A stretch of DNA of 64,000 nt from an uncultured Candidatus Saccharibacteria bacterium (lineage in GTDB: Bacteria > Patescibacteriota > Minisyncoccia > Phycocordibacterales > SBAW01). Positions 9,396-62,295 of the stretch are shown one piece after another. The notes beneath the pieces were generated by a model. The model did not search any database, was not told where the DNA came from, and saw only the letters and a list, made by a program, of their open reading frames with translations. The position numbers were made by a program, and so were the translations under genes. The stretch's first letter is position 1. Each line of letters starts with the position of its first letter. The DNA is taken from assembly GCA_964355655.1 (NCBI GenBank), contig CAYHDT010000001.1, forward strand, positions 21,588 to 85,587. The letters run 5' to 3'.

Positions 9396-11277
9396 CCGCT
9401 TCGGTAATAATAGTCCCCGAGGCGAGCGCGCTCTTGTAGGCGGCGGTCACCGCCGCGACATCCGCCGCCGAGGCCACGCTTAAAGCTTTTGTTTGCAGGT
9501 CTTGCAGGACTGCAATGCCCGTGTTGGCGCGCGTGATATTGGCGTTATACGCGTCTATCTTCGGGTCGTACTGGTGGAGCGCAAACACCGCGTTAAAGGC
9601 GTGCGTCTGCGCTATTTTTTGTTTGTCCTCGCTTAAGCTCGGGCTCGACGAAGCCGCTTCCCAGCAGTTGGCCAGCGACTGTAGCTGCGACTGTGCGCTT
9701 TGGATGTCCGCGATAGACCCCTGCTGTGTCGAGCCGTATTGCTGGGCTATTTGCACCTTGCCTTGCATGTCGGTCAAAAGAGCCTGCGCGTCGGCCTGCG
9801 CCTGCTGCTGCGCCGGGGTCAAAAAGTTGGACGCGTAGCCGCTCTGGCCGCTGAGTTCGGAAAGTCCGCCCTGCAAGGTCCTAGTCATAAGCTGGGTAAT
9901 AAGCGCGCTGATGATTTCGTCAAAGCTTTTGGCCAAGTTGAGCGAGTCTTGGCTCACGCCGAGCGTCTTGTTGAGCGACTCAGCAATGGTCGAGCCCGGG
10001 GTTGTCACAACGGTATTGCAGGTGCGATACTGGCCCCCTTCTATGGCGGTTGTCTTTTGGCCCGGTCTTGTACCGCCGGCCGGCGGCCCGCTGGTAACCG
10101 TGCAGTTGACCTCCTTGGTCGAAGAGATAAATCCTCTGCCCAGAATATAATCCTGCTGTCTCTGGCCTACCGCTTGGTTTTGCGCGTTTGTAAGCCCTAC
10201 CTGCGCGTAGGCAAATGCGCCGAAGGGGTTGTTGGTTGGTATGGAGGTAAATTGCAACAGGCCGCCCCACCCTCCTTGGGAGAAGTTGCCGTTCATAAAG
10301 CCGGTAACATTTTTTATGATGCTGGTAAGACTGCAGGACATCGCTCCTTGGCGCGCGTAGCTTTGCGCTATGGCGACGCGTATTTGCAACTGAAACGGCG
10401 AGCAGAGGAACGAGAGCGACGAGCCGCGGATAAACTCCCCCGCCGCTTGGTCGGCCACATTGGTAAAGAATTGCTGGTAGTTGCGCACGAACGACGGCTG
10501 GCCGTTAAAACCGGAGTTTATCCAGTTGACGACGCTCGCCGTTATTTGCTGTATGGCGGCGCGCGCAATGCCGCGCGCGATGCAGTTTAAAAAGTTGTCG
10601 CGCACCGTGTCGTTAGTTTTGAGCGTGTTGCCGTAGGCGGTTTGAGCGTTAAGCGCAATATCGTTGACCGGCACTGCCACGAGCGTGTTGCCAACGATCA
10701 GCGTTCCTCCTATGCCGCCGCCAAGAAGGGCGCTTCCAAATAAACTTGCCGTGCACGATACTGCGCCGGCAATACCGGCCCCCAAGAGCGCGGTGCCAAG
10801 CCCGAGCCCGCCGCCATTGTCGTCGCCGGGCCCTCCGCCGCCGGAGAATATATAAGGGGTGCCCGAAACATTGTTGTTGTTAAGGTCATTTATTGTTTTC
10901 GGGACAAAGTTTGTAGTCGGCCCTCCGCCTCCGCCGCCCGTCCCTCCGCCCCCTCCCCCGAGCCAGTCCACTCCGGGGATGTTTGCTATACCCCCGGCTC
11001 CGCCGGCTGCTCCACCCGCGCCGCCGGTACCACCCCCGCTGCTCTGTATCCCGGTTCCGACGTTAGTATTCGAGCCTGTCGGCAGGGTCCCGGAGGAGGA
11101 ATTGTTGGCGTTTGTACCGGTACCGGTCGAACTTCCCGGTTTTAGCTGCCCGGTGCCGAAGGTGCCGGTGGTTGCGGCGGGCTTTACCGTCGCGCGGAAG
11201 AAGAAAAACCAGACGAGCCCGACCACCAGCGCAAATAGTGCCGCGGCAATGATGATAATAAGAGTGCGCCTGTTCAT
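9292..11277 (-). CDS. Membrane-anchored protein with Gly/Thr/Asn-rich low-complexity regions (T4SS cluster).
   Basis: N-terminal TM IIIIAAALFALVVGLVWFFFF. Long GGGTGG/NNNN tracts, then a Cys-containing globular domain and a Q/A-rich C-terminus. ATGA overlap with the upstream gene. Confidence 0.6.
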   Translation of the reverse strand: MNRRTLIIIIAAALFALVVGLVWFFFFRATVKPAATTGTFGTGQLKPGSSTGTGTNANNSSSGTLPTGSNTNVGTGIQSSGGGTGGAGGAAGGAGGIANIPGVDWLGGGGGGTGGGGGGPTTNFVPKTINDLNNNNVSGTPYIFSGGGGPGDDNGGGLGLGTALLGAGIAGAVSCTASLFGSALLGGGIGGTLIVGNTLVAVPVNDIALNAQTAYGNTLKTNDTVRDNFLNCIARGIARAAIQQITASVVNWINSGFNGQPSFVRNYQQFFTNVADQAAGEFIRGSSLSFLCSPFQLQIRVAIAQSYARQGAMSCSLTSIIKNVTGFMNGNFSQGGWGGLLQFTSIPTNNPFGAFAYAQVGLTNAQNQAVGQRQQDYILGRGFISSTKEVNCTVTSGPPAGGTRPGQKTTAIEGGQYRTCNTVVTTPGSTIAESLNKTLGVSQDSLNLAKSFDEIISALITQLMTRTLQGGLSELSGQSGYASNFLTPAQQQAQADAQALLTDMQGKVQIAQQYGSTQQGSIADIQSAQSQLQSLANCWEAASSSPSLSEDKQKIAQTHAFNAVFALHQYDPKIDAYNANITRANTGIAVLQDLQTKALSVASAADVAAVTAAYKSALASGTIITEADVTNATQDRTTLQSALASRNQQTADELQQCNAFK

Positions 11278-12191
11278 TGTGGTGAGTATGAAGGAAGAAA
11301 AACGTCCCAGGCTGCTCCCGGCTCGTCTTTACTGAAAAGTATACCGCTCTTACGCAGTTGTTCGGCCAGCGTTGTCAACAAACGAGAGGCTTCGGTTCCG
11401 GAAGTTTGAAATAGCTGCAGGCCGGCAAGCCCCCGCATCGGGTCGTCTATAACAGTCTTCATTTCGCCCGCGGCAACCGACATTTTGGAAAGGTTATTAA
11501 GCAGCTGCAGATACAAAGGAGCAACGGTCGATGGAACCGGCATGCTTGCAAGGTCGTCGGCAAGCGCGGCATACGCCGCGCCTATGGCGGTAAGCGGGGC
11601 AAGCGCCGAAGCATCACCGTAATCGATCGCTTTTCCTATAGCCAGAAGAGCCTCGTCATTGTTGGCGCGCGGGTGGCCAAGAAAAGTTTTCATAACCCCG
11701 TTTCCCCACTCGTGCAGGCTGGTTGGTGTTTGGCTTATCATCGTGAGGTTGCTCGCCGTATATGCCGCCGACACGTTTTTCTCTACCTGCGCGGCGGCGT
11801 CGGCTATAAGCTTTTCTTGCGTCGGTAAATCACTCCCCAGTCCTTGCGCCCCCGCATCGCCGAGGTTAACAAACAGCGATCGGGCAATCGAGTTAGTGAC
11901 ATTGGAGCTTTGTGCCGCTGTAAGCATCGCCCGGACGGCCGTTTGGTCCGGCGCCGCGGGGAGCCCCGGCGCCTGCGCCTGTATTGCGTCTAGGGATGCC
12001 TGCCAATTTTCTGTTTGTGGAGCGCCGCTCGCGGTCAAAAGTACGGAGGTGGAGGCAGATTTGGGACTGGTCAGGTACTGCGCGCCGATAATAAGGCCCC
12101 CAGCAAGCGCTACCGATAAGACAATGCCTGAAAATCGCGAACTGGGGAGATAAGCACGAACGTCCATGCATCCAGTATATAATGGAAACAT
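11274..12191 (-). CDS. Hypothetical membrane-anchored protein (first gene of the minus-strand T4SS block).
   Basis: TM GIVLSVALAGGLIIGAQ near the N-terminus, then an Ala-rich soluble domain. An alternative start is possible at 12167. Confidence 0.5.
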   Translation of the reverse strand: MFPLYTGCMDVRAYLPSSRFSGIVLSVALAGGLIIGAQYLTSPKSASTSVLLTASGAPQTENWQASLDAIQAQAPGLPAAPDQTAVRAMLTAAQSSNVTNSIARSLFVNLGDAGAQGLGSDLPTQEKLIADAAAQVEKNVSAAYTASNLTMISQTPTSLHEWGNGVMKTFLGHPRANNDEALLAIGKAIDYGDASALAPLTAIGAAYAALADDLASMPVPSTVAPLYLQLLNNLSKMSVAAGEMKTVIDDPMRGLAGLQLFQTSGTEASRLLTTLAEQLRKSGILFSKDEPGAAWDVFLPSYSPQ

Positions 12192-31916: not shown

Positions 31917-32684
31917 ATGCAAGAAACTGCCTCATCCCTTATAGCCTTGGGCCTCACTCCTACCGAAGCGGCCGTCTACCTTGCGGGCCTCTCCTACGAG
32001 TCGGTCACGGTCCAGGACCTGGTTCGGTCGACCAAGGTCAAGCGGCCCACTATTTACCACGCGCTCTCGCGATTGCAGGAGCGCGGGCTCGCCGCAGAAA
32101 AGCGCGTGGGCGAGCGGCTGCGCTTTTATATGTCGCCGCCCCAGAACCTCCATGTATTAGTAGAGGCGCAAAAGCAGCGGGTTGTCGCGCAGGAGAAGCT
32201 GCTCCAGGAGCTCCTGCCCTCTTTGTCCGCCCGGCAAAAGCGGGTCAAGCAAGACGGCGTAGGTGTTGTGCACTACAGTGGCATCGAGGGGATGAAGATG
32301 GTGATGGACATGGCTTTTTACTGCAAGACCAAGCGCTGGGATGTTATCGCCCCCTTTAACAACTTCCTTCGCGAGTACGACTCGGAGTATGCCAAGCAGT
32401 ACTTGCAGTCGCGCAAGTATCACGGCATCATCTCGCGCACTCTGTGGGAGAACACCAAAGATGGGAAACCCCTTTCTGAAGAAGAGAGGAGCGAGCGCAA
32501 TCCGCGGCTCATGCCCTGGGTCATGCACGGCAAGTTTAAGTCGATGATGGTACTTTTTGACGATAAGGTCGCTGTCTTTTCCCCGTATGACAAACTTTCC
32601 GCGGTGCTCATCACCAGCACAGAACTGCACGCGCTCTTCGCGTCGATGTTCGAAGGACTGTGGGAATTTTCGGAGCGATATTAA
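31917..32684 (+). CDS. TrmB-family transcriptional regulator (paralog 1 of 4).
   Basis: N-terminal wHTH LGLTPTEAAVYLAGL..VQDLVRSTKVKRPTIYHALSRLQERGL, and a C-terminal effector-binding domain. Confidence 0.75.
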   Translation: MQETASSLIALGLTPTEAAVYLAGLSYESVTVQDLVRSTKVKRPTIYHALSRLQERGLAAEKRVGERLRFYMSPPQNLHVLVEAQKQRVVAQEKLLQELLPSLSARQKRVKQDGVGVVHYSGIEGMKMVMDMAFYCKTKRWDVIAPFNNFLREYDSEYAKQYLQSRKYHGIISRTLWENTKDGKPLSEEERSERNPRLMPWVMHGKFKSMMVLFDDKVAVFSPYDKLSAVLITSTELHALFASMFEGLWEFSERY

Positions 32685-41684: not shown

Positions 41685-42605
41685 ATGGCGGAGCTTAAAA
41701 ACCTCAAGACCCAGTTTTTGGAATATTTAGAGATAGAGAAGGGGCGCTCTGTTAAGACGGTCGAAAATTATGACCGCTATCTGACGCGCTACCTTGCTCA
41801 CTCCAAGGTTACCTCCCCCCAGAAAATCACCGAGCAGTCGGTGCGCGAGTTCCGCATACATTTAAACCGGCAAGCCGGTACGAGCGGGACGATGAAGCAC
41901 AAAACGCAGAACTATTACATGATTTCACTCCGCGCGTTTCTTAAGTTCCTCCGCAAGCGCGATATAGAAAGCTTAAACCCCGAACGCATCGAGCTGGCCA
42001 AGGTCGGCCAGCGCGACCTCGACCTTATAACCTCCGATGAGCTTAACCGCCTTATCAACGGGCCCAAAGGCGACCCATCTTTGGCGGGCCTGCGCGACCG
42101 CGCCATACTGGAGCTTTTTTTTAGCACCGGTCTGCGCGTCTCGGAGCTATGCGCTCTTAACCGCGACATCGACCTGACACGCGACGAGTTTAGCGTGCGC
42201 GGCAAGGGCGAGAAAGTCCGCGTCGTTTTCCTATCCCCCGCGGCCAAGCAAGCTATTAAGGACTACGAGCAGAAGCGCGGCGACGTGGATGAGGCGCTGT
42301 TTATACAGATGGGCCCCTCCTCCGCCAAGGCTTCGGAGGGCGGGCGCGACTTGCGCTTAACGCCTCGGTCAATTGAGCGGATTGTAAAAGGCTACGCAAT
42401 CAAAGCCGGCATCACGCGCAAAGTAACCCCGCACGTCATAAGACATTCTTTCGCGACTGATTTATTGGAAAACGGCGCCGACCTGCGCGCAGTCCAGGCA
42501 CTCTTAGGCCACGCCAACATAGCAACCACACAGGTTTACACCCACATAACCGACAAGCACCTGCGCGAAGTCCACAAAAAGTTCCACGGCCAGCGGAGGA
42601 AATAA
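41685..42605 (+). CDS. Tyrosine recombinase XerC/XerD family.
   Basis: Catalytic residues R..HxxR..Y (HVIRHSFAT...LLGHANIATTQVYTHI). Confidence 0.85.
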   Translation: MAELKNLKTQFLEYLEIEKGRSVKTVENYDRYLTRYLAHSKVTSPQKITEQSVREFRIHLNRQAGTSGTMKHKTQNYYMISLRAFLKFLRKRDIESLNPERIELAKVGQRDLDLITSDELNRLINGPKGDPSLAGLRDRAILELFFSTGLRVSELCALNRDIDLTRDEFSVRGKGEKVRVVFLSPAAKQAIKDYEQKRGDVDEALFIQMGPSSAKASEGGRDLRLTPRSIERIVKGYAIKAGITRKVTPHVIRHSFATDLLENGADLRAVQALLGHANIATTQVYTHITDKHLREVHKKFHGQRRK

Positions 42606-45066: not shown

Positions 45067-45840
45067 ATGTCAAAAATTATTGATGAAATAGGAAACAAAG
45101 CTTTGTCAGATAAGCTCCAAGAACTCGGTTTGAGCGAAAAGGAGGCTGCTGTGTACTTGGCCCTTTTGCCTCGGCAAGATACGGGTACGAGTGTACTAAT
45201 TAAGACGACGGGTCTACATGGGCAGTTTGTATATGATGCTTTGGCTAAACTGGAGGTCCTAGGTCTTGCCAAACATGTAGTCCAGGCAGGCCGGAAGAAG
45301 TTTTCGGCCAACCCACCCCAGCGCTTACTCTCGCTAATAGAAGAAAAGCGCCTTTCGGCGCAGTCGGTGGCCAAAGAGCTCCAAGCTCGCTTTGCGGGTA
45401 AGCACGAACAGAGCTTCGAAGTCCATCAGGGAGACTCGGCTTTTATTGCACATCAAATGGATCTACTGCGTCGGGCACCGCAGGGCGGCACGTTGGACGC
45501 CATTGCAACCGAGACAGAGCGGTTTCAAAAAACGTTTGAAGAGTATGGCATGTGGGACGAATACTTGCGATTGCAGGTGGAAAAGGAGATAAAGATCCGT
45601 TACTTAGGATCGGAGGCACAGCGGGGCCGTCTGCAAAAGCGTGAGCAAAGCGAACTATCCTGGACCTATAAAATCCTGCCGGGGCAGTCGACCGGCAACA
45701 TCAGTATCGAAGTGCATGCCGAGACGGTCACCTTTGTTACCTACGGCGAGCCGGTACTCTGTTTTACTCTCTCCAGCAAAGAAGTTGCACGAGGCTACCG
45801 TGAGTTTTTCAATTCTGTTTGGGCGTTGGCTAAGAAATAA
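45067..45840 (+). CDS. TrmB-family transcriptional regulator (paralog 2).
   Basis: N-terminal LGLSEKEAAVYLALL wHTH. Confidence 0.7.
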   Translation: MSKIIDEIGNKALSDKLQELGLSEKEAAVYLALLPRQDTGTSVLIKTTGLHGQFVYDALAKLEVLGLAKHVVQAGRKKFSANPPQRLLSLIEEKRLSAQSVAKELQARFAGKHEQSFEVHQGDSAFIAHQMDLLRRAPQGGTLDAIATETERFQKTFEEYGMWDEYLRLQVEKEIKIRYLGSEAQRGRLQKREQSELSWTYKILPGQSTGNISIEVHAETVTFVTYGEPVLCFTLSSKEVARGYREFFNSVWALAKK

Positions 45841-46160: not shown

Positions 46161-46374
46161 ATCCTAAGCATATCAAATTCCTGTGTTGCGCAAACTCGAT
46201 AAGCCAACCAGTAATGACAAGCTTAATAGAGTCCTCGAATTTACGCGTCGAGGAGCCGCGCCCTTTGCGGGAGTACTTCTTTTTGTCGCAGACCACGCGG
46301 TTTTTGTACCGAGGGTCGGCGAGCACGCGTGCCGCATCACTGCGGCGCTTCGGGGCTTGGATGGTGATTTGCAT
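46081..46374 (-). CDS. Small basic protein (MQITIQAPKRRSDAARVLADPRYKNRVVCDKKKYSRKGRG...). Weak resemblance to ArfA-type ribosome rescue factors.
   Basis: Strong RBS AGAGGAAAG 6 nt before the ATG at 46374. Overlaps a neighbouring ORF by 38 nt. Confidence 0.3.
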   Translation of the reverse strand: MQITIQAPKRRSDAARVLADPRYKNRVVCDKKKYSRKGRGSSTRKFEDSIKLVITGWLIEFAQHRNLICLGYDRYGEGTAGTVAGAASASGHDAHKK

Positions 46375-46795
46375 AATTTCTTTCCTCTGCATCGGCACAC
46401 CACGATTGATGTGTCGAAAAAAGGAGGCGACACTGGGTCGCCTCGACGAATCCTGCATGGCGGAACACCTGGGTCTTTTTGACGGACCCGTCGGGGAGTT
46501 TTTCGTCCCGCGACTCCCGAACCGAGAAGGCGTAGAGAACTTTTATTCCCCGCTCTTGCAACGCCGCCTGCAACACCGGCATAAAGAACGGGGCACCGCC
46601 GATCATTACCGAATCAAAGCCATCCTGGCGGGCCATCTGCGCGAGTGTTTGTGCATAAGCCTTGAGCCGGATTTGATCAGGCAGCTCATCGAACGTAATG
46701 AGTGCCTGTACGAGCACCTTGTCGGCAGGCTCGACGACGCCGGCAGCAATTTGGTCAGCAGTCGCTGCGTGCTGGGTCAAATTTAAAATTCGCAT
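46337..46795 (-). CDS. Hypothetical protein.
   Basis: 152 aa, no motif recognised. Confidence 0.5.
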   Translation of the reverse strand: MRILNLTQHAATADQIAAGVVEPADKVLVQALITFDELPDQIRLKAYAQTLAQMARQDGFDSVMIGGAPFFMPVLQAALQERGIKVLYAFSVRESRDEKLPDGSVKKTQVFRHAGFVEATQCRLLFSTHQSWCADAEERNYANHHPSPEAPQ

Positions 46796-46799
46796 GAAA

Positions 46800-48130
46800 G
46801 AACCCCTTGTTTCTCAATAAGCCAACGAACCATTCGCGGGCTGAGTAAAGAGGGCGAGCACGAAGGCTCGCCCGGAAGTTTGAACAATCACTGAAAGAAC
46901 AAAATTAATGGGTGGTAGCGCTAGGTCTTCGCCACCATGATGCTGTCACTCCCCGAAGCTTGTGGAGAGTCGGACCGCAGCTGTTGGGCTGCCAGCACCT
47001 TTGATCACACATCCCGATGTCGCCACCGGGTTAGAGGAATGTGTCTCCCTCTTATCCGGACTGAGCTTATTGGCTCCAGGGCTGGCCGGCCCCTTTACCA
47101 TGCGGTTGGTTGACCGCTCCCCCTTTGCACCACCAGCTTCCCAGACCGATGGATTGGGGTATGATCCGACGCTCATGTCCTTACCTCAGGTTTAACCATT
47201 CAACAGGATCTGTGCTGATCATGTGATTCTGGTTGGTACTGAGGAGGTCCCCACCACAGGCTTGCGGCCCATAGCAGTTTCCACCAACTTTCTGCCCGTA
47301 TACCGTTGGCGACGGCACACAAACTTCTGACTCCCTTTGCCCCGCCAAGGGCTCGGACCGTTGCATAGTGCAAGCCTTGCGACTCGACACCCGGGAGAAA
47401 ACCCTTTTCATCGGGCTCCGTTTAGCTTCGGTGGAGATTTGGATGCTTGCGCACCCGGCCGTAGCGGAATCAACACTACAACCTATCAACCCCTTGCGGG
47501 GGTATCTGGCTCTCCACAGCCATAACATTGGCGCCGAATGTTCGGCGGCACTGTTATGGCAATGGAGCATTTTCAAACAACTTCTCAATCAACCCACGAT
47601 CCGCCAGTAGGCAGGCTCACGAGCTGAGTAGAGGTGCGGATATAAAGGCTCCGCACTAGTGCCCTCTCACTTTGAGCGACGCCACTCGGGGCGGCGGCCG
47701 GTGGGGGTGGTAATAAGGCGCCGCTCGAAAGCGGCCTGTCCCCTATCAACACCGCACCGCTTGGGCCGTCCGTCCGCCCGGAATCCCTTTTGATGGAGGA
47801 ATTTCGTCGCGGCGTCCTCCAGGGTGTGAGACCCTGCATTCGTCCGGCTATTCATCATTTGTAACCCCCCTGGTTGTGTGATGATTGAAAGATCTAATTC
47901 TCTTTTGTTTGAAAAAGAATTGCAGGAGTGTGGGCTGCCCTGGCAACCCTTTGGAGCCCAGCTGGGGTCCGCGGCTACTCCAAGCCACACCTAGCCACGC
48001 GGCCGCGCGCTAGGATTACGATGAGGTCCTCTTTTTATGGAACCCCTCCTCCCAAGTCCTTGCGGTCTCGGGCCCCTCTCAGCCATCGTTCGTGGCTGCT
48101 TGGTACGCTTTTCTAGAGCGCCCAAGGGAG
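46800..48130. ncRNA. Long ORF-free, GC-rich region with many hairpins. Candidate structured non-coding RNA(s) or a degraded element. Its class could not be identified.
   Basis: No protein-like ORF on either strand. The tracked ORFs in this region have RNA-like R/S/P/G composition. GNRA-type hairpins are present (CCCCUUGCGGGG at 47490-47506, GCCGCUCGAAAGCGGC at 47735-47752). Confidence 0.35.
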
Positions 48131-48309
48131 GTAATGGAATCAATACGATCCCAGCCGCCCTGCCCAAATACAAACCGGCGCCCCATATGTATTGCAGGGC
48201 GGGCTGAGTAGCCTGTGGCGTATCTAGAGCAAGGCGAAGGAATCACATTCTTCGCACTTTTTCAGTATTAAACTGTCAAAGTTCGTCCCCGGGACCCCTC
48301 GCCTCCGGG

Positions 48310-48327
48310 TGTCAAACTTGATTGACA
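48310..48327. promoter_or_regulatory. TGTCAAACTTGATTGACA inverted repeat, an operator-like site.
   Basis: Perfect TGTCAA/TTGACA arms. One of three such sites in 48270-48380. Confidence 0.45.
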
Positions 48328-48354
48328 AAGCCATTATAGTCAGTTCTTTAAATT

Positions 48355-48372
48355 TGTCAAGCGGTTTTGACA
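48355..48372. promoter_or_regulatory. TGTCAAGCGGTTTTGACA inverted repeat, an operator-like site.
   Basis: TGTCA-N8-TGACA. Confidence 0.45.
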
Positions 48373-48757
48373 GATTGAAAACTTACATACAGAAAATAGC
48401 CTTAAATATAGCCATTTTTTACATATTGATATTCAATCGAGTATGACATAAAAATAGTGTTGATAGCCAGCTGCTTGACTTTATGTGCTGACTATAGTAA
48501 CCTAATTAGCGACCGGGGTGGTACTCATCCTGGCCCGGGTTTTCTGCCCAGCCCGCAGTCAATTGGGCTTGTACCTCGGCCGGCAAAGTGCCGGTTAGAC
48601 TCAGGAGCTACTTATGAAGAAGCTCAAACTGTTCGGTGACGGCTGGTAAGCCTTTAGTCGGACAATGTGGAATCGATCTCAGCGTCTGAAGTTTCGTCGC
48701 TGTAGGTTGATATCTCGAAAAGCAGAAGCGCACCGCAGTCAAAAGGTGCAAGACGTC

Positions 48758-48806
48758 GGGCGGTTGCAAGGTTCAAACCTCTGCAACCGCCCTACTTGTT
48801 TTTATG
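48758..48806. terminator. Rho-independent terminator, shared with the convergent TrmB gene.
   Basis: GGGCGGUUGCA...UGCAACCGCCC hairpin followed by UUGUUUUUA on the plus strand. The stop of the minus-strand TrmB gene abuts it. Confidence 0.6.
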
Positions 48807-49548
48807 CCTCAGCTATTTCCCAAAGCGTATTAAATATGGCTCTAAAGCTGTCTGCGATTTCTTTGCTGTCTATGATGATGCCGAATACCGGTCCTTTGAG
48901 TGCCATAACGGCGACGCAGTTTCTATAAACAAAAATGTCGGAACTCATGGGCATGCGGTCGGGTGATATATATCTGCGCTCGGTGTTTGGCGGTATCTCG
49001 GAACCCGACTTGCCTCCCTGGCGTGTATAGATGTAGCGCGAGTGGATTCCGTTCCTAACTCTTTTATCAGAAAAATCGTCCAGTTCCTTTTGTGTGTATA
49101 TGGTTGCCAAGGAGTCCCGAGAGAACAAAATAAATATTTCCTCCCCTTTTTTTAAGGTTAAAACCTCTTCGCGCATAGCGGTAATTCCTTCTTTGCCGCT
49201 AAAGAACCTCACCAGCGGTCGCTCGCCGGCGCCTTCGAACTTTTTGAGCAGCTCAGGCAGAAAGTCGTTGAGTTCAAGCTCCTTGGCCTCGAACTCTTTT
49301 TTCTTTAGTTCAAAAATACGCTTCAGATATTCAGGAGATTCTGGGGCAAAGTATGTTTTCTTACCCTCTTCGTAGGTGCTCATGAGACCCTTCTTCATCA
49401 AGCTTTCCAGTTGCACATAGGCGGTTGAGCGCACTATTTTTGCTTGCTTAGCTAGCTGGTCGGCCGTGGCGCGCCCTATTTCCAGAGCGGCAATGTAAAT
49501 TTTGGCCTCTTTTTCCGACAGCCCAACATCCTGGAGCTCTTTTAGCAT
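48802..49548 (-). CDS. TrmB-family transcriptional regulator (paralog 3).
   Basis: Start reassigned to MLKELQDVGLSEKEAKIYIAALEIG (ATG at 49548). The palindrome GTACATTGTAC lies at 49552-49562. Confidence 0.7.
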   Translation of the reverse strand: MLKELQDVGLSEKEAKIYIAALEIGRATADQLAKQAKIVRSTAYVQLESLMKKGLMSTYEEGKKTYFAPESPEYLKRIFELKKKEFEAKELELNDFLPELLKKFEGAGERPLVRFFSGKEGITAMREEVLTLKKGEEIFILFSRDSLATIYTQKELDDFSDKRVRNGIHSRYIYTRQGGKSGSEIPPNTERRYISPDRMPMSSDIFVYRNCVAVMALKGPVFGIIIDSKEIADSFRAIFNTLWEIAEA

Positions 49549-49904
49549 GAGTACATTGTACGGCACAAAACCAAATTTTGGGTACGAATAACCCCCGCAA
49601 TGGAGGTGGCGGGGGTTTGTGTGTAAGCCTTCAGAACCGGCTTTCAAGAGTTAGGATTGCCTCTTGTTTTCAATTTATTGTCGAAGTTTGTCGGTAATCC
49701 GCAATATCTCGACAGTGAGTTTAGAAGGTTACACATTGGTGCAGCTGCAATGCACAGAAAGAACATTTTTGTTATGTCGTTCGCGACAGGGTAGAACGCG
49801 CTCGCACAACATTGGTCTGAAGTAACTATACTCCCATCAAGGACAGTGTAAAGGACATAGGTGGGGATAACCTGCCTCTGCCGGCAAGGCGGGCTGTCCT
49901 TTAG

Positions 49905-51377
49905 CTAATCAACGAAGTATTTCCTATGTATGTCCTTTATTTCAGCTTCCTCCGCAACCTCCTTAGCCTCTTTGGCCTCCTCCCCTATCTTACGCAGCTC
50001 TTTGTCGGTCAAATTGAGCAGCTCCAGCGCTTTTTGCTCCAAATAGTCGGCTGTATTTTTTGCAGGGTCTTCCAATACCTCCTCTAGCAGCGCGTGGAGC
50101 GTCCAGCCTATGCGAGGGCCCGGCCGCTCCCCCAACTCAATGATTTTTCGGCCATCTATTTTGAGCATGCCGACCGATATCGGGTCGCGCATTGCCTGCT
50201 CTATCATGGCCTGGTACTTGCGCAGGCGAAAAGGTTGCTCTTTGGGGCGCCCGGTGCCTATCCGGTCGCATATGCGGAGGTTTATAAGGTCCCAAATATG
50301 TTCCCGCCCCACGTTAGCTACTATCCGGCGCACTGCGGACAAGGTTACCTTCTCCGGGTCGCTAAAAAACATATGCCAGCGAACCAGCGAGGCAGCCCGG
50401 TCTATCGTTTCACGTGGAAACTTAAGGTTTTCGAGTATCTTTTTGGTCATCCGCGCTCCAACCACGTCGTGTCCGTGGAAAGTCCAATCGCGTTTTTCAT
50501 CCGACCAGCGGCGGCTCTTTGGCTTTCCTACATCGTGAAACAAGGCGGACAAGCGGATGATGAAACTCCAGTTTTTATCGGCAGCGTGCTGGGTTGAGCG
50601 CAGGTTGTGCTCAAAAACATCAAAGCTATGGGCCTGATTTTGCTCAACCCCTATCCCCTCCTCGATTTCGGGGGCTATATAGCGTAAAATCCCTAATTTA
50701 TGGCTTAAAATAAGGGCTTTCATGGGTTCTGCAGAGTTTAATATCCGGATAAATTCATCCCGGATACGCTCTTTAGAAATCTTCTCCAACTGAGTGGCCG
50801 ACTCCCCTATGGCAGTCTGCGTTTTTGGCTCTAGCTGGAAGTCGAGCTCGGCCGAAAGTCGTACCGCGCGCATAATTCGCAAAGCATCCTCGTCAAAACG
50901 CTCCCCCGGCTCCCCCACGGCTCTTATCCAGCGACTACCCATGTCCTTTATGCCATCGTAGGGATCCAAAAGCTGTCCTTTAGATGGACTATAGGCTAAG
51001 GCATTGATTGTAAAGTCTCGGCGCTTCAAGTCGTCCTCTATCTTTTGACTAAAAACAACGCTGTCCGGGCGCCGGGCGTCACTGTACTTGCCCTCAAGCC
51101 TATAAGGCGTTACTTCTACAACCTTGAGACGCTCATCGGTAACGGTGTCATTGACTACCCCGACAGTCCCGAACTCGTTGGTGTAGTAGGTATGCTCAAA
51201 AATACCTTGAATTCGCTCGGGCGTGGCGTTAGTGGTTACATCCCAGTCTTTGGGCGTGTGGCCTAGCAAAAGGTCCCGTATGCACCCCCCTACTATCCAG
51301 GCTTCGAATCCTGCATTTTCCAGGCCTTCTGTTACCCGCGCTACCTCCGGAGGTATTTGGCTGGGACTTATTTGCAT
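49905..51377 (-). CDS. cca: CCA-adding tRNA nucleotidyltransferase with an HD domain.
   Basis: GGCIRDLLLG..DWDV nucleotidyltransferase motif plus an HD domain (HDVGK). Confidence 0.9.
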   Translation of the reverse strand: MQISPSQIPPEVARVTEGLENAGFEAWIVGGCIRDLLLGHTPKDWDVTTNATPERIQGIFEHTYYTNEFGTVGVVNDTVTDERLKVVEVTPYRLEGKYSDARRPDSVVFSQKIEDDLKRRDFTINALAYSPSKGQLLDPYDGIKDMGSRWIRAVGEPGERFDEDALRIMRAVRLSAELDFQLEPKTQTAIGESATQLEKISKERIRDEFIRILNSAEPMKALILSHKLGILRYIAPEIEEGIGVEQNQAHSFDVFEHNLRSTQHAADKNWSFIIRLSALFHDVGKPKSRRWSDEKRDWTFHGHDVVGARMTKKILENLKFPRETIDRAASLVRWHMFFSDPEKVTLSAVRRIVANVGREHIWDLINLRICDRIGTGRPKEQPFRLRKYQAMIEQAMRDPISVGMLKIDGRKIIELGERPGPRIGWTLHALLEEVLEDPAKNTADYLEQKALELLNLTDKELRKIGEEAKEAKEVAEEAEIKDIHRKYFVD

Positions 51378-51414
51378 TGGATAATTCTAACAGATAAAGC
51401 TATTATTAAGTTCT

Positions 51415-51487
51415 GCGCCCGTAGCTCAATGGATAGAGTACTTGGCTTCGAACCAAGGGGTTGGGAGTTCGAATCTCTCCGGGCGCA
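51415..51487 (+). tRNA. tRNA-Arg (anticodon TCG).
   Basis: Cloverleaf: acceptor GCGCCCG/CGGGCGC, anticodon loop CUUCGAA, T-loop GGGAGUUCGAAUCUCUC. Confidence 0.85.
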
Positions 51488-51541
51488 CAAAAGTGCTCAT
51501 TGTGGATAAATGAACTACCGTTCTGTCCTATATAGTATCAT

Positions 51542-52216
51542 GTGCTTATGAGGAAAGACAAAGAGTTGGCCATCGAATTAAGAAGAGCCGGTAAAAGCTA
51601 TCGGGAAATTAAGAAAGAGATAGGAGTCTCACTCAGTACGCTTTCTCTATGGTTTAAAGATCTCGAATGGTCTAAGGATGTTGGTAGAAAGCTTATTTTT
51701 CAACACATTTCAGATAGTACAACTAGGATATTTGAACTGAATAAAGTCAGAGGTAAGAGACTCGACACCATTTATGAATTGGGGCGCAAGGTTGCGGCTA
51801 AAGAGTTTGATAAACTAAAAACTGATCCCCTCTTTGTAGCCGGTGTGGTGGCCTATTGGGGAGAAGGAGACAAGACTACAAAACATCTATGTCGATTGGC
51901 AAACAGCGACCCGGCGATGATAAGGCTATTTTGGTTGTTTTTGACTAAGAAATGTAGAATTCCAGAGAACAAAATAGCCTGTTGGCTGATCCTTTATCCC
52001 GATTTGGACGAACAGATCGTAAAAAAACAATGGAGCCTAGAAAGCGGAATCCCCGAGAGTAACTTTAGAAAAGCGGTTTTTATAAAAGGTAGACATCCAA
52101 CCAAAAGAAACAAGTATGGTGTCTGTAGTATAGTCGTCCCCAGTCGATTTTTTAAAGAAAAAATGCTACTATGGCTTCGTTTGATAGCAGAGGAGTTCAA
52201 TGCGGATATGGTCTAA
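51542..52216 (+). CDS. HTH-containing hypothetical protein in an AT-rich insert between tRNA genes. Possibly homing-endonuclease-like (weak).
   Basis: N-terminal HTH KSYREIKKEIGVSLSTLSLWFKDL. FVAGVVAYWGEGDK weakly resembles a LAGLIDADG-type motif. The 3' end overlaps the tRNA-Gly start by 15 nt. Confidence 0.45.
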   Translation: MLMRKDKELAIELRRAGKSYREIKKEIGVSLSTLSLWFKDLEWSKDVGRKLIFQHISDSTTRIFELNKVRGKRLDTIYELGRKVAAKEFDKLKTDPLFVAGVVAYWGEGDKTTKHLCRLANSDPAMIRLFWLFLTKKCRIPENKIACWLILYPDLDEQIVKKQWSLESGIPESNFRKAVFIKGRHPTKRNKYGVCSIVVPSRFFKEKMLLWLRLIAEEFNADMV

Positions 52217-52272
52217 TGGTATGACAACTGGTTGCCAATCAGTTAGCGGGAGTTCGATTCTCCCTATCCGCA
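52202..52272 (+). tRNA. tRNA-Gly (anticodon GCC).
   Basis: Acceptor GCGGAUA/UAUCCGC, anticodon loop UUGCCAA, T-arm GGGAGUUCGAUUCUCCC. Confidence 0.8.
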
Positions 52273-52460
52273 CTAAGAAACAGATATTAAAAGACATCCA
52301 GAGTGTGGATAATCAATCCCCTATAAATAAAGGAATATTTAGCATTTCTGTGGATAAGTATGGGGATATGTGCATTAAAGGACACAAAAATACTGTCCTT
52401 CACCTGCCCGACAGGCAATGTGAGTGCCTTTTTAGTGCAAAAACACCAATTTATGTTTCA

Positions 52461-52521
52461 TATGTAACGTTTTACGTGAACCATGTGAACGCGAAATGAG
52501 TGAACGGGAACCATGTGAACG
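52461..52521 (+). repeat. Five tandem copies of (T)GTGAAC(G) immediately upstream of yraN.
   Basis: tatGTAACG, acGTGAACc, atGTGAACG, gaGTGAACG, atGTGAACG within 61 nt. The run ends 7 nt before the ATG at 52528. Confidence 0.6.
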
Positions 52522-52527
52522 AGAATC

Positions 52528-52908
52528 ATGCCTAGTCCAAAGCGCAAAATAGGAGATATCGGGGAGGAGGTTGTGTGTAAATACCTAGAAAGAAAGGGAT
52601 TTCGGGTATTGGAGCGTAATTACCTTAGAAAATGGGGCGAAATAGATATTGTTGCCGAAAAGGGCCCATTGCTTAGTTTTATCGAGGTAAAGAGCGTTAC
52701 ACGTGAAAATGGTTCACGTGCAACATATAGGCCGGAAGAGAACGTGCACCCGGCAAAGCTTAAAAGGCTGCACCGGGCTATACAGACCTACTTATTGGAC
52801 CGAAGGGTACCGGAAGACAGGCCGTGGCAGGTGGATGTGGCTTGTGTTTACTTGGATTTTTCGACCAGAAAGGCTAGAGTAGAGGTATTGGAGAATGTAA
52901 TTCTCTAA
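52528..52908 (+). CDS. yraN: YraN (UPF0102) family endonuclease.
   Basis: IGDIGEEVVCKYLERKGFRVLERNYL..GEIDIVAEKGPLLSFIEVKS signature. Confidence 0.8.
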   Translation: MPSPKRKIGDIGEEVVCKYLERKGFRVLERNYLRKWGEIDIVAEKGPLLSFIEVKSVTRENGSRATYRPEENVHPAKLKRLHRAIQTYLLDRRVPEDRPWQVDVACVYLDFSTRKARVEVLENVIL

Positions 52909-52957
52909 AAGACAAAATAAAAGACACCATTCGTCGCTAAAGCTATGAAGGGCACAG

Positions 52958-53028
52958 CGGGGCGTAGTATACCGGTAGTACAACTGCTTTGGGAGCAGTT
53001 AGACCGAGTTCAATTCTCGGCGCCCCGA
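52958..53028 (+). tRNA. tRNA-Pro (anticodon TGG).
   Basis: Acceptor CGGGGCG/CGCCCCG, anticodon loop UUUGGGA, T-arm CCGAGUUCAAUUCUCGG. It overlaps the 5' extension of the tracked methyltransferase ORF, which was therefore trimmed. Confidence 0.8.
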
Positions 53029-53036
53029 CAAAAGTT

Positions 53037-53900
53037 ATGGAAAAGATAACGCTTATAACCAAGCCTTCCGCCGGATACGAGCTGTTGGACTCAGGGTTTG
53101 AAGAGAAGCTTGAGCGTTTTGGCGAGGTTATTTTGGCGCGCCCGGACCCGCAGGCTTTATGGGAGAAGGACAGGGAAGAGAAGTGGCAAAATGCCGCCGG
53201 CCGGTTTGAGAGAGAGGGGAAGGATGGGAAATGGTCAGGAAAGTCTTTGCCAAAACAATGGGAGACAGAATTTGGTGGATTAAAGTTTTTGATTAAGCCG
53301 ACCAGTTTTAAACACACAGGCCTCTTCCCTGAGCAATTGTCCAACTGGCAGTGGGGGAGCGAGTTGATAAAAAATGCCGGAAGGGAAATCTCGATTTTAA
53401 ATATTTTTGGTTACACCGGCGGGGCGACGCTTGCTGCCGCAGCCGCCGGAGCAAAAGTTACGCATGTCGATGCAAGCAAGACAGCCGTCGCCTGGGCGCG
53501 GGAAAATGCAAAGCTGTCGGGGTTGGAGGGCGCACCCATCCGCTGGATAACCGAAGATGCAATCACTTTTTTGAAGCGCGAGGTAAGCCGCGGCAACAAG
53601 TACGACGCCGTCGTGATGGACCCGCCGGCATTCGGGCATGGGCCCGATGGGGAAGTGTGGAAGTTTGAGGAGCATTTTTTGCAGCTTCTTGAGTTGGTGC
53701 AAAAACTGCTCTCCAATAAGCCGCTGTTTGTACTGATTAACGGCTATGCTGCGGGCTACTCGCCGCTTGCCTTTGCCTACAATCTGGAGAGTTTTGTAAA
53801 AAAGTTCGGCGGTACTATTGAGTATGGGGATCTGGCGATAGCAGAAAAGGATAGCGAACGAGTTTTGCCCGCCGGTATCTTCGCCAGGTGGAAAGCATAG
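53037..53900 (+). CDS. Class I SAM-dependent rRNA methyltransferase (RlmI/RlmK-like).
   Basis: DPPAFG motif and SAM-binding GYTGGATLAAAAAGA. Start at MEKITLITK (53037), after tRNA-Pro. Confidence 0.75.
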   Translation: MEKITLITKPSAGYELLDSGFEEKLERFGEVILARPDPQALWEKDREEKWQNAAGRFEREGKDGKWSGKSLPKQWETEFGGLKFLIKPTSFKHTGLFPEQLSNWQWGSELIKNAGREISILNIFGYTGGATLAAAAAGAKVTHVDASKTAVAWARENAKLSGLEGAPIRWITEDAITFLKREVSRGNKYDAVVMDPPAFGHGPDGEVWKFEEHFLQLLELVQKLLSNKPLFVLINGYAAGYSPLAFAYNLESFVKKFGGTIEYGDLAIAEKDSERVLPAGIFARWKA

Positions 53901-61492: not shown

Positions 61493-61560
61493 TTTATTTC
61501 TTAGCCGGGACGGCTTGGTGGGTCAAAATGTCGTCCACAATGCCGTACTTTTTAGCCTAT
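61493..61560. repeat. Direct repeat copy A: a duplicated clpP 3' end (last about 20 codons plus stop).
   Basis: 66 of 68 nt identical to 63692..63759. Copy A still encodes ...[20 protein letters not shown] on the minus strand. Confidence 0.8.
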
Positions 61561-62295
61561 TTCCGGCCCCAACCTTTCCCAAAGTTGTTGCCACACCACG
61601 CGCATAGTGTCGGCCAGATGCCGGTTTTCTACCAAGACGGCAAAAGGGGACGGACCCTCCAGGTCAATAAGGGCAACCTTGTCACCATAGATATTTATAT
61701 CGGTTTTGAACTTGGGCGCGGTAATAAACTTGGTTTTACGCAAAAATTTTAGATTGTCTTTTGAAAAGTTGCGCGCAAAGGGTACATCTCGAGAGATGGA
61801 GCGGATAAGTATGTCGCGCCGCGCGCGCTCCTTTGGGAACCAATCAAAAATCCTAGGCGGCAACTCCGCCCGCAGGTCTTCCAAATCTTCATACGCCAGT
61901 ATCTCCTTTTTTTCTCGCAACATGTCCGCGTACACCTCCTCGACCCCCTGCATTCCGTCATAAAAAGTGACGCGAGGTTTTTTTGCGGATTTGTTATTGA
62001 TTGCGAGCAAGTCCGGCAGTATGCGCTCAAGCCCGCTGAGGCGGACTTTTTGCATCTCAACCAACCGCTCTGGATTGACCGCGCTGTAGACGTGCCGCTT
62101 GCCGCGCTTGGTTTCGTTGATATATCCGCGCTCGCGTAGCTCATCAATGAAAGTATAGATAGTGGAGCGGTTAACCCCGGACTTGCCGGCAAGAGCAAGC
62201 ATGGTCGCCTCGCCGAGCTCTAATGCCGCCAAATAAACTTTGGCCTGCATCGAGGTCATGCCGAGCAAAGGGAGCAAATTCTCGTCTATTTCCAC
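61552..62295 (-). CDS. TrmB-family transcriptional regulator (paralog 4).
   Basis: N-terminal LPLLGMTSMQAKVYLAALELG wHTH. GTG start at 62295. Confidence 0.7.
   Translation of the reverse strand: MEIDENLLPLLGMTSMQAKVYLAALELGEATMLALAGKSGVNRSTIYTFIDELRERGYINETKRGKRHVYSAVNPERLVEMQKVRLSGLERILPDLLAINNKSAKKPRVTFYDGMQGVEEVYADMLREKKEILAYEDLEDLRAELPPRIFDWFPKERARRDILIRSISRDVPFARNFSKDNLKFLRKTKFITAPKFKTDINIYGDKVALIDLEGPSPFAVLVENRHLADTMRVVWQQLWERLGPEIG

Follow-up and report, generated by a model that had tools for sequence, protein, structure and literature searches.

Introduction

Large structured RNAs without a known function are rare, and the discovery of a new class has often led to new biochemistry, examples being the OLE ribonucleoprotein and the RNA cages of GOLLD and ROOL. 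The tiny genomes of Patescibacteria contain very little non-coding DNA, and a folded RNA of 1.5 kb behind a strong, doubly operated promoter would therefore be unexpected in them. Here we analyze a candidate of this kind on the minus strand of a 64-kb stretch of contig CAYHDT010000001.1, from an uncultured Candidatus Saccharibacteria bacterium; the whole of this stretch is referred to as the window. The source is a Patescibacteria/candidate phyla radiation (CPR) population of Hainich groundwater, and identical contigs were obtained from ERZ1292618 and ERR3858112. A first reading of the nucleotide sequence, hereafter the original prediction, had singled out positions 46800-48130 as a GC-rich region lacking protein-like open reading frames (ORFs), rich in hairpins and possibly encoding one large structured RNA.

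The gene arrangement around this region can be compared with that of anti-defense operons of the acr-aca type, in which a strong promoter, with inverted-repeat operators to which a neighboring helix-turn-helix (HTH) regulator binds, precedes small variable genes, sometimes including the ring nuclease Csx20 (bioRxiv 10.64898/2026.07.27.740549; 10.1101/2024.09.24.614671).

We propose that the region belongs to an operator-controlled unit on the minus strand, that the long 5' part of this unit consists of structured non-coding modules, and that one of them, C2 (46874-47578), would be a stand-alone RNA of a new class carried as a cassette. We put the probability of this reading at roughly 55%.

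Results

Non-coding nature of the gene-free stretch

The stretch under study, 46796-48801 (2006 nt), is the longest gap in the window between ORFs of at least 140 aa, the yardstick we used, and the longest ORF inside it measures 135 aa (47181-47588, minus strand). Codon usage was scored against a model trained on 24 long genes of the window. The ORFs inside the gap all scored negative (-0.08 to -0.43) and had a GC content at second codon positions (GC2) of 0.54-0.67, whereas the real genes of the window, small ones included, scored +0.07 to +0.23 in frame with a GC2 of 0.37-0.47. An antisense ORF at 47275-47607 (plus strand), with a borderline codon score of +0.057, was rejected as coding because its peptide is less similar to its counterpart in the groundwater contig L109, introduced below, than the underlying nucleotides are (41% peptide identity, 20% gaps).

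A six-frame Pfam scan of 46796-48801 returned no family at E ≤ 1, and neither tblastx against all related loci nor a comparison with the small proteins of loci L009, L010 and L011 gave a match. Among 5.8 billion proteins, the 135-aa ORF retrieved its own strain variant only; a query of concatenated six-frame segments retrieved nothing and was uninformative, since it missed even the known strain variant. Recoding TGA, TAG or TAA, one at a time, opened no long frame across the stretch, and an alternative genetic code was rejected on this ground. The original prediction had named a pseudogene, recovered by frameshift-corrected translation, as the finding that would speak against it. We looked for one, and Pfam, tblastx and the small-protein comparison left no residual protein similarity in any frame, so a decayed protein gene was likewise rejected. 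The stretch is thus real non-coding DNA, and the original prediction was right that it holds no protein-like ORF. Its GC content was correctly described in direction and overstated in degree, being only mildly raised (56.1% versus 52.8% for the whole window), and its right edge, which had been placed at 48130, extends further, to a promoter at 48333-48360.

Excess folding of the minus strand

The minimum free energy (MFE) of the region was -636 kcal/mol on the minus strand versus -585 kcal/mol on the plus strand. Against dinucleotide shuffles, the two halves of the minus strand gave z-scores of -4.61 and -6.25. In 200-nt segments of the same strand across 46800-48400, z ranged mostly from -1.4 to -6.2, with one segment at -0.5, while segments of the same length in the flanking genes scattered around 0. 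Stems of at least 4 bp capped by GNRA or UNCG tetraloops numbered seven on the minus strand, compared with 1.6 ± 1.2 in shuffled sequences (maximum 5 in 200) and 1.5 ± 1.2 in 82 other tiles of the window, and only the minus strand was enriched. The pervasive hairpins and GNRA-capped stems reported earlier are therefore real, and they are specific to one strand. The two halves of the region are not paralogous, which excludes two tandem copies of one RNA. Taken with the promoter described below, these data indicate that the minus strand is probably transcribed and that the RNA, about 1.5 kb long (48326 to 46852, 1.47 kb), would be heavily folded.

C2, a conserved structured module

Approximately half of the region is conserved outside the immediate relatives of the window. 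C2 (46874-47578, minus strand; about 700 nt) has a homolog on the reverse strand of L109 (JGI1358J11329_10022571), a groundwater contig unrelated to the window that was recruited by a metagenome scan with the pattern of the R1 hairpin described below. In blastn and nhmmer comparisons the two are colinear over approximately 47563-46975, with colinear matches exceeding 500 nt. Identity is 58-59%, and it includes invariant blocks of 12-20 nt; conserved blocks are TGGCTGTGGAGAGCCAGA, CCCCGCAAGGGG, ATCCAAATCTCCACC, ATGGGCCGCAAGCCTGTGGT and GGGAGCGGTyAmCCAACCGCAT.

Folded as a single sequence, C2 gave z = -6.25. For the alignment of C2 with its L109 homolog, RNAalifold predicted 129 consensus pairs, 35 of which were changed on both sides. 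Since this count is partly circular, we compared it with 60 control alignments whose columns had been shuffled within conservation classes. The consensus MFE was -145, versus -86.4 ± 6.4 in the shuffled alignments (z = -9.2) and -103 for the reverse complement. Compensated long-range helices include 47239-47235/46999-46995, where GUACC/GGUGC became CCGCC/GGCGG, and 47175-47171/47066-47062, where UGAGC/GCUCA became UCGGU/GCCGA. The two features expected of a shared RNA class, colinear blocks and compensated helices, were thus both found between the window and L109, in one independent comparison. A terminator-like hairpin, GGGCGAGCC-UUCG-UGCUCGCCC followed by UCUUUACU, closes C2 on its 3' side (46852-46873, minus strand), and a hairpin occupies the same position in L109.

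The TrmB proteins encoded beside the two C2 copies are only 30% identical, from which it follows that C2 is either better conserved than its neighbors or has been transferred between genomes. A second comparison bears on its mobility: L109 and L160 have flanks that are 80-89% identical, and the 580-nt C2 homolog of L109 is swapped in L160 for 293 unrelated nucleotides. As judged from these alignments, C2 behaves as an exchangeable cassette, because a genome with no other relation to the window has it, whereas close relatives of the window have it replaced or truncated. The large structured RNA of the original prediction accordingly survives in part: about half of it (47578-46874, minus strand) is conserved, and it is not a single molecule of 1.3 kb. 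The location on the minus strand, the mosaic make-up and the setting in an operator-controlled unit that leads into small genes punctuated by R1 had not been anticipated.

Comparison with known RNA families and mobile elements

C2 matches no catalogued family and is a candidate for a new class of large structured RNA, known from only two independent lineages. With Rfam 15 at gathering thresholds, the whole window yielded four tRNAs, all elsewhere. At E ≤ 10 with permissive filters, both strands of 46600-48800 gave noise only, and no match was obtained on close and distant relatives or on the homolog in L109. The top match in the region was to the Transposase-2 RNA (RF03015) at 48048-48113 on the minus strand; it was rejected at 22.4 bits and E = 0.12, the gathering threshold being 42.7, and it falls within the strain-specific module M2 with no transposase nearby.

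The original prediction had listed an ORF-less group II intron, a GOLLD/ROOL/OLE-like RNA or adjacent housekeeping RNAs as possible identities and had suggested an Rfam search of both strands. That search fits none of them. Group II introns, ORF-less forms included, had no covariance match at gathering thresholds across the window, at E ≤ 10 in 46600-48800 on both strands or in L109, and the six-frame Pfam scan of 46796-48801 (E ≤ 1) revealed no remnant of a reverse transcriptase or maturase. GOLLD, ROOL, OLE, raiA and HEARO had no match to their Rfam 15 models, not even a sub-threshold one. Ribosomal RNA, RNase P, transfer-messenger RNA (tmRNA), signal recognition particle RNA and 6S RNA were without covariance-model matches, and ARAGORN detected no tmRNA. 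The absence of Rfam matches leads us to exclude group II introns, GOLLD, ROOL, OLE, RNase P and tmRNA as identities of the region. The covariance models also fail to support the partial similarities to rRNA, RNase P, tmRNA and group II domain V noticed earlier by eye.

Searches of mobile-element collections were also negative. In its 'distant' mode, blastn found no similar DNA in phage and plasmid collections, and exact-pattern scans of viral contigs produced chance matches only. A 19-mer common to a phage family was discarded, as it is coding there and the similarity does not extend.

Promoter, operator-like palindromes and the TrmB-family regulator

A sigma-70 promoter that matches the consensus at 12 of 12 positions lies at 48333-48360 on the minus strand and is directed into the gene-free region (TTGACA at 48360-48355, a 16-nt spacer and TATAAT at 48338-48333); transcription is expected to start near 48326. 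Two operator-like palindromes of the form TGTCA-N8-TGACA bracket it. O1 (48355-48372) overlaps the -35 hexamer, and O2 (48310-48327) lies just 3' of the -10 hexamer, over the expected start site. These are the only two matches to the pattern in 64 kb, where 0.02 would be expected, and both palindromes are conserved in L010 and L011. A metagenome scan with the exact promoter/operator pattern returned no match.

Upstream lies a gene for a winged-helix regulator of the TrmB family (48802-49647, minus strand; Pfam TrmB, E = 4e-14). The TrmB gene adjoins the promoter in L009, L010, L011, L178 and L179 as well, and the order of TrmB gene, palindrome, promoter and palindrome is conserved in L009, L010, L011 and L179. 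The flanking TrmB gene and palindromes of the original prediction are thus both real and linked to the structured RNA, and O1 and O2 are probably operators bound by the adjacent TrmB-family regulator.

Two further features of this part of the window were observed. Four TrmB-family paralogs were identified by tblastn in the 64 kb, at 31917-32684 (plus), 45067-45840 (plus), 48802-49647 (minus) and 61552-62295 (minus), a density of one regulator family that is unusually high given how small the genome is. At 48457-48805 on the plus strand, with the promoter region on one side and the stop codon of the TrmB gene on the other, lies a divergent, strongly folded unit (z down to -5.35) with a tiny ORF, MKKLKLFGDGW (48615-48650), an AGGAG ribosome-binding site and a good intrinsic terminator at 48750-48800; it could be a small RNA or encode a leader peptide. 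An antisense promoter occupies the equivalent place in L010 and L011.

The R1 hairpin

The locus is punctuated by copies of a 44-nt motif, R1, which reads CUCUuuUCAGCyCGyGaa-loop-uUCGyGGGUUGAuaGAG on the sense strand. Its copies share a 13-bp hairpin, CUC..UCAGCyCGyG-loop-CGyGGGUUGA..GAG, which ends 2-41 nt before a start codon, and each is preceded on its 5' side by a terminator-like hairpin. The 64 kb contain three copies, all on the minus strand and all at this locus. R1-B, with an extended stem (47579-47634; R1 covariance model 36.8 bits, E = 7e-07), divides the region into an upstream part with modules M1, M2 and M3a and a downstream part with C2. R1-C (46808-46851; 50.4 bits) ends 12 nt before the ATG at 46795, and R1-D (46190-46232; 43.9 bits) stands ahead of a 100-aa ORF (46160-45858).

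We found at least 70 R1 sites, in every case upstream of small genes, in approximately 30 loci from several Patescibacteria lineages, L010, L011 and L087 among them. Arrays in metagenome contigs reach 13 copies, and L087 has 13 in a span of 5.6 kb. In 63 of 70 copies R1 is followed within 45 nt by the start of an ORF of at least 35 aa, compared with 51% at random positions. In an alignment of 27 copies, always on the sense strand, 95.9% of cells were paired, seven of the 13 pairs showed double changes, and there were 67 G.U cells versus 14 non-standard ones. Those 67 G.U cells of the top strand correspond to A.C mismatches on the bottom strand, and the G.U excess shows that the structure is read on the sense strand rather than as a DNA palindrome.

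R1 had no match in Rfam, and the sequence comparisons give good support to the view that it is a genuine RNA-level hairpin and a new motif. Two other identities were considered and rejected. As a sigma-70 promoter, R1 would have poor hexamers with a spacing of 17-34 nt, and its pairing is RNA-like; as an attC or dif-like DNA site it would have the wrong boxes on the wrong strand, with TTCAGC...GyTGAyAGAG instead of RYYYAAC/GTTRRRY. R1 could serve to find and delimit such islands in metagenomes.

Mosaic organization of the region

Comparison with relatives shows that the region is a mosaic of modules, each present once in the window, and not one conserved 1.3-kb RNA. The closest relatives, L009 and L003, are contigs from other samples that are approximately 96% identical to the window and share 49562-48135 and 47892-47298 with it. 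M1 (48135-48326, minus strand) is a conserved 5' leader whose hairpins include a long stem, CAGCCCGCCCUGC...GGGCAGGGCGGCUGG. It is 95% identical in L009 and about 75% identical in the syntenic L179; to L010 and L011 it aligns weakly, mainly through a GGCTAyTnAGCC motif near the long hairpin. M2 (47893-48134, minus strand) is a strain-specific segment of 242 nt, and L009 and L003 carry an unrelated 253-nt segment, M2', in its place. M2' is the commoner allele and has homologs in L179 and in L161. M3a (47635-47892, minus strand) is a structured segment with a terminator-like hairpin at its end (47665-47643); it is common to L009 and L003, and homologs were found in no other locus.

A segment of 505 nt (46793-47297, minus strand) is deleted in L009 and L003. 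With it the two strains lose the terminator hairpin and R1-C, two-thirds of C2 from its 3' end and the ATG of the gene that follows, and the same junction, an in-frame fusion to the MJ1673-like gene, occurs in the two independent contigs. At this junction (L009 2207-2635, L003 333-962) an upstream ORF of non-coding appearance runs in frame into the MJ1673-like gene from its codon 2 onward. Over its first 60 nt the MJ1673-like gene of these strains differs from that of the window by 33%, a pattern suggestive of a recombination tract.

More distant relatives carry other content at this position. L179 has M1 and M2' followed directly by R1, which is reached after only about 430 nt. L010 and L011, at about 75% protein identity, have, after the same promoter, a leader of about 1 kb that is unrelated in sequence and even more strongly folded (z = -13), and then real small genes. 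That leader (L010 1921-2920, L011 1417-2415) contains a conserved 39-aa ORF (MRELLQLLRGARLLRRGQ..) and has undergone a 250-nt segment swap of its own between the two loci. Throughout L010-L019, other content sits where the window has the RNA, and five genomes of a species collection have the MJ1673-like gene and no RNA. The window and L009 differ by substitutions that are unevenly spread, probably through recombination, and not clearly rarer than in the flanking genes.

Downstream genes and island context

The first gene beyond C2 (46337-46795, minus strand) encodes a protein of the MJ1673 family (PF27247) with distant similarity to the CRISPR ring nuclease Csx20 (NCBIfam Csx20, E = 4.1e-07; PADLOC, 3.8e-06; neither reaching the family cutoff). 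Most of the more than 800 members of the MJ1673 family measure about 120 aa, and the window copy has a C-terminal extension of 30 aa. We noticed no CRISPR-Cas genes in the window. Next comes a basic ORF of 58 aa (46377-46204, minus strand; KRRSDAARVLADPRYKNRVVCDKKKYSRKGR...), 57% identical in L011, which we take by eye to resemble the ribosome rescue factor ArfA; Pfam and NCBIfam gave no significant match. A terminator-like hairpin (46263-46243) lies within its reading frame, and E. coli arfA likewise has a terminator hairpin inside its reading frame. In L109, the C2 homolog precedes a small basic ORF and a RelB/RelE-like pair, and the window has HicAB. These neighbors hint at a conflict-related island.

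A tyrosine recombinase, presumably Xer-like as judged by eye (41685-42605; 306 aa), lies 4 kb away beyond unrelated genes. In L179, a Xer-type tyrosine recombinase identified by its Pfam domains (9146-11341) carries a LAGLIDADG intein that the window counterpart does not have. On the other side of the locus, the cumulative GC skew has its minimum at about 51.2-51.4 kb, followed by a steep rise, and the genes change orientation there in AT-rich DNA (39-41% GC); 51200-53100 may be a replication origin. The same segment holds genes for tRNA-Arg, tRNA-Gly and tRNA-Pro about 750 nt apart, with an HTH ORF of 224 aa (51542-52216) between the first two.

Discussion

Our preferred reading can be put as a sequence of events. 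The sigma-70 promoter would be clamped by the two operators, through which the adjacent TrmB-family regulator probably represses it. The transcript would pass through M1, M2, M3a, R1-B and C2 and then into a small-gene array formed by the MJ1673/Csx20-like gene, the ArfA-like gene and the 100-aa ORF. C2 would be bounded on its 5' side by an R1-type hairpin and on its 3' side by the terminator-like hairpin and R1, and cutting or termination of the precursor at this punctuation may free it as a discrete RNA. Any role that it has in the cell would then be that of cargo in a variable accessory island, and not that of a regulator of the gene that follows.

Several observations weigh against this reading. 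About 750 nt and the intervening hairpins separate the promoter from C2. The 35 compensatory pairs exceed the 23.9 ± 4.6 of the shuffled alignments (maximum 36) only modestly, and the alignment behind them is not structure-aware. C2 is known from two independent lineages only, the window population and L109, so its covariation rests on one pairwise comparison. L009 and L003 do without the 3' 60% of C2, which must therefore be dispensable in at least some hosts. No homologs were found in phage, plasmid and viral collections, the large ones having been searched with exact patterns only. Finally, R1-B is followed at 9 nt by an ATG (47570) that opens an ORF of 129 aa, in keeping with the pattern of 63 of 70 R1 copies, and this usual distance keeps a coding or formerly coding origin alive.

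The rival that survives best holds that the whole 1.47 kb is a cis-acting leader of the MJ1673/Csx20-like operon, controlling it by attenuation at terminator-like hairpins within it and by R1 occlusion of the ribosome-binding site, with no free RNA being made. The region does adjoin the operon without a break and shares its strand, the sole recognizable promoter lies upstream of it, terminator-like hairpins stand ahead of every R1, the outer R1 helix has its 3' strand directly against the Shine-Dalgarno sequence, and in L010 and L011, too, a structured leader (z = -13) of about 1 kb occupies this place. The genes behind the leader and its length, however, vary too freely. The C2 homolog of L109 precedes different genes (the small basic ORF and RelB/RelE-like pair), L160 holds an unrelated insert between the same flanks, L009 and L003 lose most of C2 while the downstream gene stays in frame, and L179 reaches R1 after only about 430 nt. 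Since modules this interchangeable are hard to reconcile with a leader tuned to one gene, we regard this rival as unlikely.

A different rival denies the region any function and takes it for evolutionary debris of small-gene cassettes and recombination scars, folded because it is rich in GC. In its favor, near-identical strains differ by the swap of one module and the deletion of another, the position is taken up by real small genes or by unrelated sequence in relatives at 75% protein identity, and the substitutions between the window and L009 are patchy and not clearly rarer than in flanking genes. Yet dinucleotide shuffles control for GC content and still leave z at -4.6 to -6.25, tetraloop stems are enriched on the minus strand alone, C2 keeps invariant blocks and compensated helices relative to L109 where the neighbor protein is 30% identical, and protein similarity is left in no frame. 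We consider debris improbable.

We attach equally little weight to the proposal that the modules are mobile elements acting as DNA, similar to miniature inverted-repeat transposable elements (MITEs), IS200/IS605 or integrons, with the hairpins as single-stranded recombination sites. Such elements would account for the clean replacement of modules between conserved flanks in two genome pairs and for the same module in genomes with unrelated neighbors; strand-specific hairpins are also found in IS200/IS605 ends and attC, and folded single-stranded DNA tolerates G.T pairs. The module borders, however, have no terminal inverted repeats or target-site duplications, and each module is single-copy in the window. 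No transposase, HUH or IntI-type domain was detected in 46796-48801 by the six-frame Pfam scan or among the called genes of related islands, the 64 kb not having been fully domain-scanned. R1 is without the R''/R' boxes of attC, and its wobble pairs are on the coding (top) strand, whereas attC folds the bottom strand. Above all, mobility of DNA explains how modules move and not why C2 retains its structure.

The weakest rival, which we hold to be very improbable, makes C2 a present or former protein-coding cassette, with the ORF at 47570-47181 (129 aa) as a lineage-specific small protein and RNA structure as incidental: besides the spacing from R1-B noted above, it can point to a reading frame without stops in the window, which L003 and L009 also keep open as far as the deletion (as the in-frame MJ1673-like fusion), and to a single frame-consistent tblastn match to L109 (40.6% over 96 aa, E = 7e-11), but the ORF has a codon score of -0.275 and a GC2 of 0.54, unlike every real window gene; two stops interrupt the frame of its counterpart in L109, where sense ORFs do not exceed 94 codons; mismatches at codon positions 1/2/3, phased from ATG 47570, number 49/46/35 and thus show no third-position excess; amino-acid identity (41%) is below nucleotide identity (58%); conservation rises from 58.1% inside the ORF to 62.8% past its stop codon; of the three substitutions that separate the window from L003 in the ORF, two alter an amino acid; Pfam, PHROG and PADLOC gave no match, and the 5.8 billion proteins only the strain variant; and the ATG, as read from the sequence, has no Shine-Dalgarno motif.

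We therefore return to the reading in which C2 is a cassette-borne RNA. A bolder extension of it, which we regard as a minority possibility that nevertheless deserves attention, is that the locus represents a new kind of accessory locus, in which a ligand-sensing TrmB-type repressor and a strong promoter would control R1-delimited exchangeable cassettes encoding either conflict proteins (a Csx20-like ring nuclease, toxin-antitoxin pairs) or RNA effectors. R1 might then act as a processing and translation signal and as a recombination anchor, and C2 might be an effector, for example a decoy or scaffold in phage-host or symbiont-host conflict.

If C2 is functional and moves as a cassette, the cassette logic of protein genes would extend to structured RNAs, and under the bolder extension C2 would be the first member of a horizontally traded family of RNA cassettes. 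A functional C2 would also offer a concrete and testable way in, through its defined promoter with two operators, the regulator and the punctuation hairpin. Should our reading be wrong, the locus would still provide, for an uncultured lineage, a clear case of an intergenic hotspot that is hypervariable.

Four described systems resemble parts of the locus. Like integron cassettes, the locus consists of short units in one direction, bordered by imperfect palindromes with conserved ends and a variable middle; its content differs among close relatives, and some units have no ORF. R1 differs from attC in that it lacks the RYYYAAC and GTTRRRY boxes, stands 2-41 nt before start codons rather than after stop codons and has its G.U pairs on the sense strand, the one presumed to be transcribed. 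In none of the loci did an integron integrase turn up next to the array, the recombinase at 41685-42605 having been judged by eye. Repetitive extragenic palindromic sequences and bacterial interspersed mosaic elements (REP/BIME) share with R1 the form of a short, conserved, imperfect palindrome repeated at intergenic positions of operons and, for R1 presumably, transcribed into mRNA. Unlike them, R1 is confined in the window to one island (3 copies in 64 kb), has a single orientation directly before start codons and is conserved across several Patescibacteria lineages.

With acr-aca operons the locus has in common a strong promoter bracketed by palindromes, an HTH regulator gene, small fast-changing genes and a distant Csx20 relative. 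It departs from them in that no phage or plasmid context was detected and the Csx20 similarity is below the family cutoff, and we know of no acr-aca type operon with 0.5-1.5 kb of structured non-coding RNA before its genes. C2 itself is most readily set beside OLE, GOLLD, ROOL, raiA and HEARO. Like these RNAs it measures several hundred nucleotides, is predicted to form many helices with GNRA tetraloops, appears to be untranslated and lies in an accessory region, and short invariant blocks alternate in it with compensated helices. It differs from all of them in having no sequence or covariance match and in its restriction to two lineages, and also in its proposed setting, as a replaceable cassette bounded by R1 inside a longer, operator-controlled transcript.

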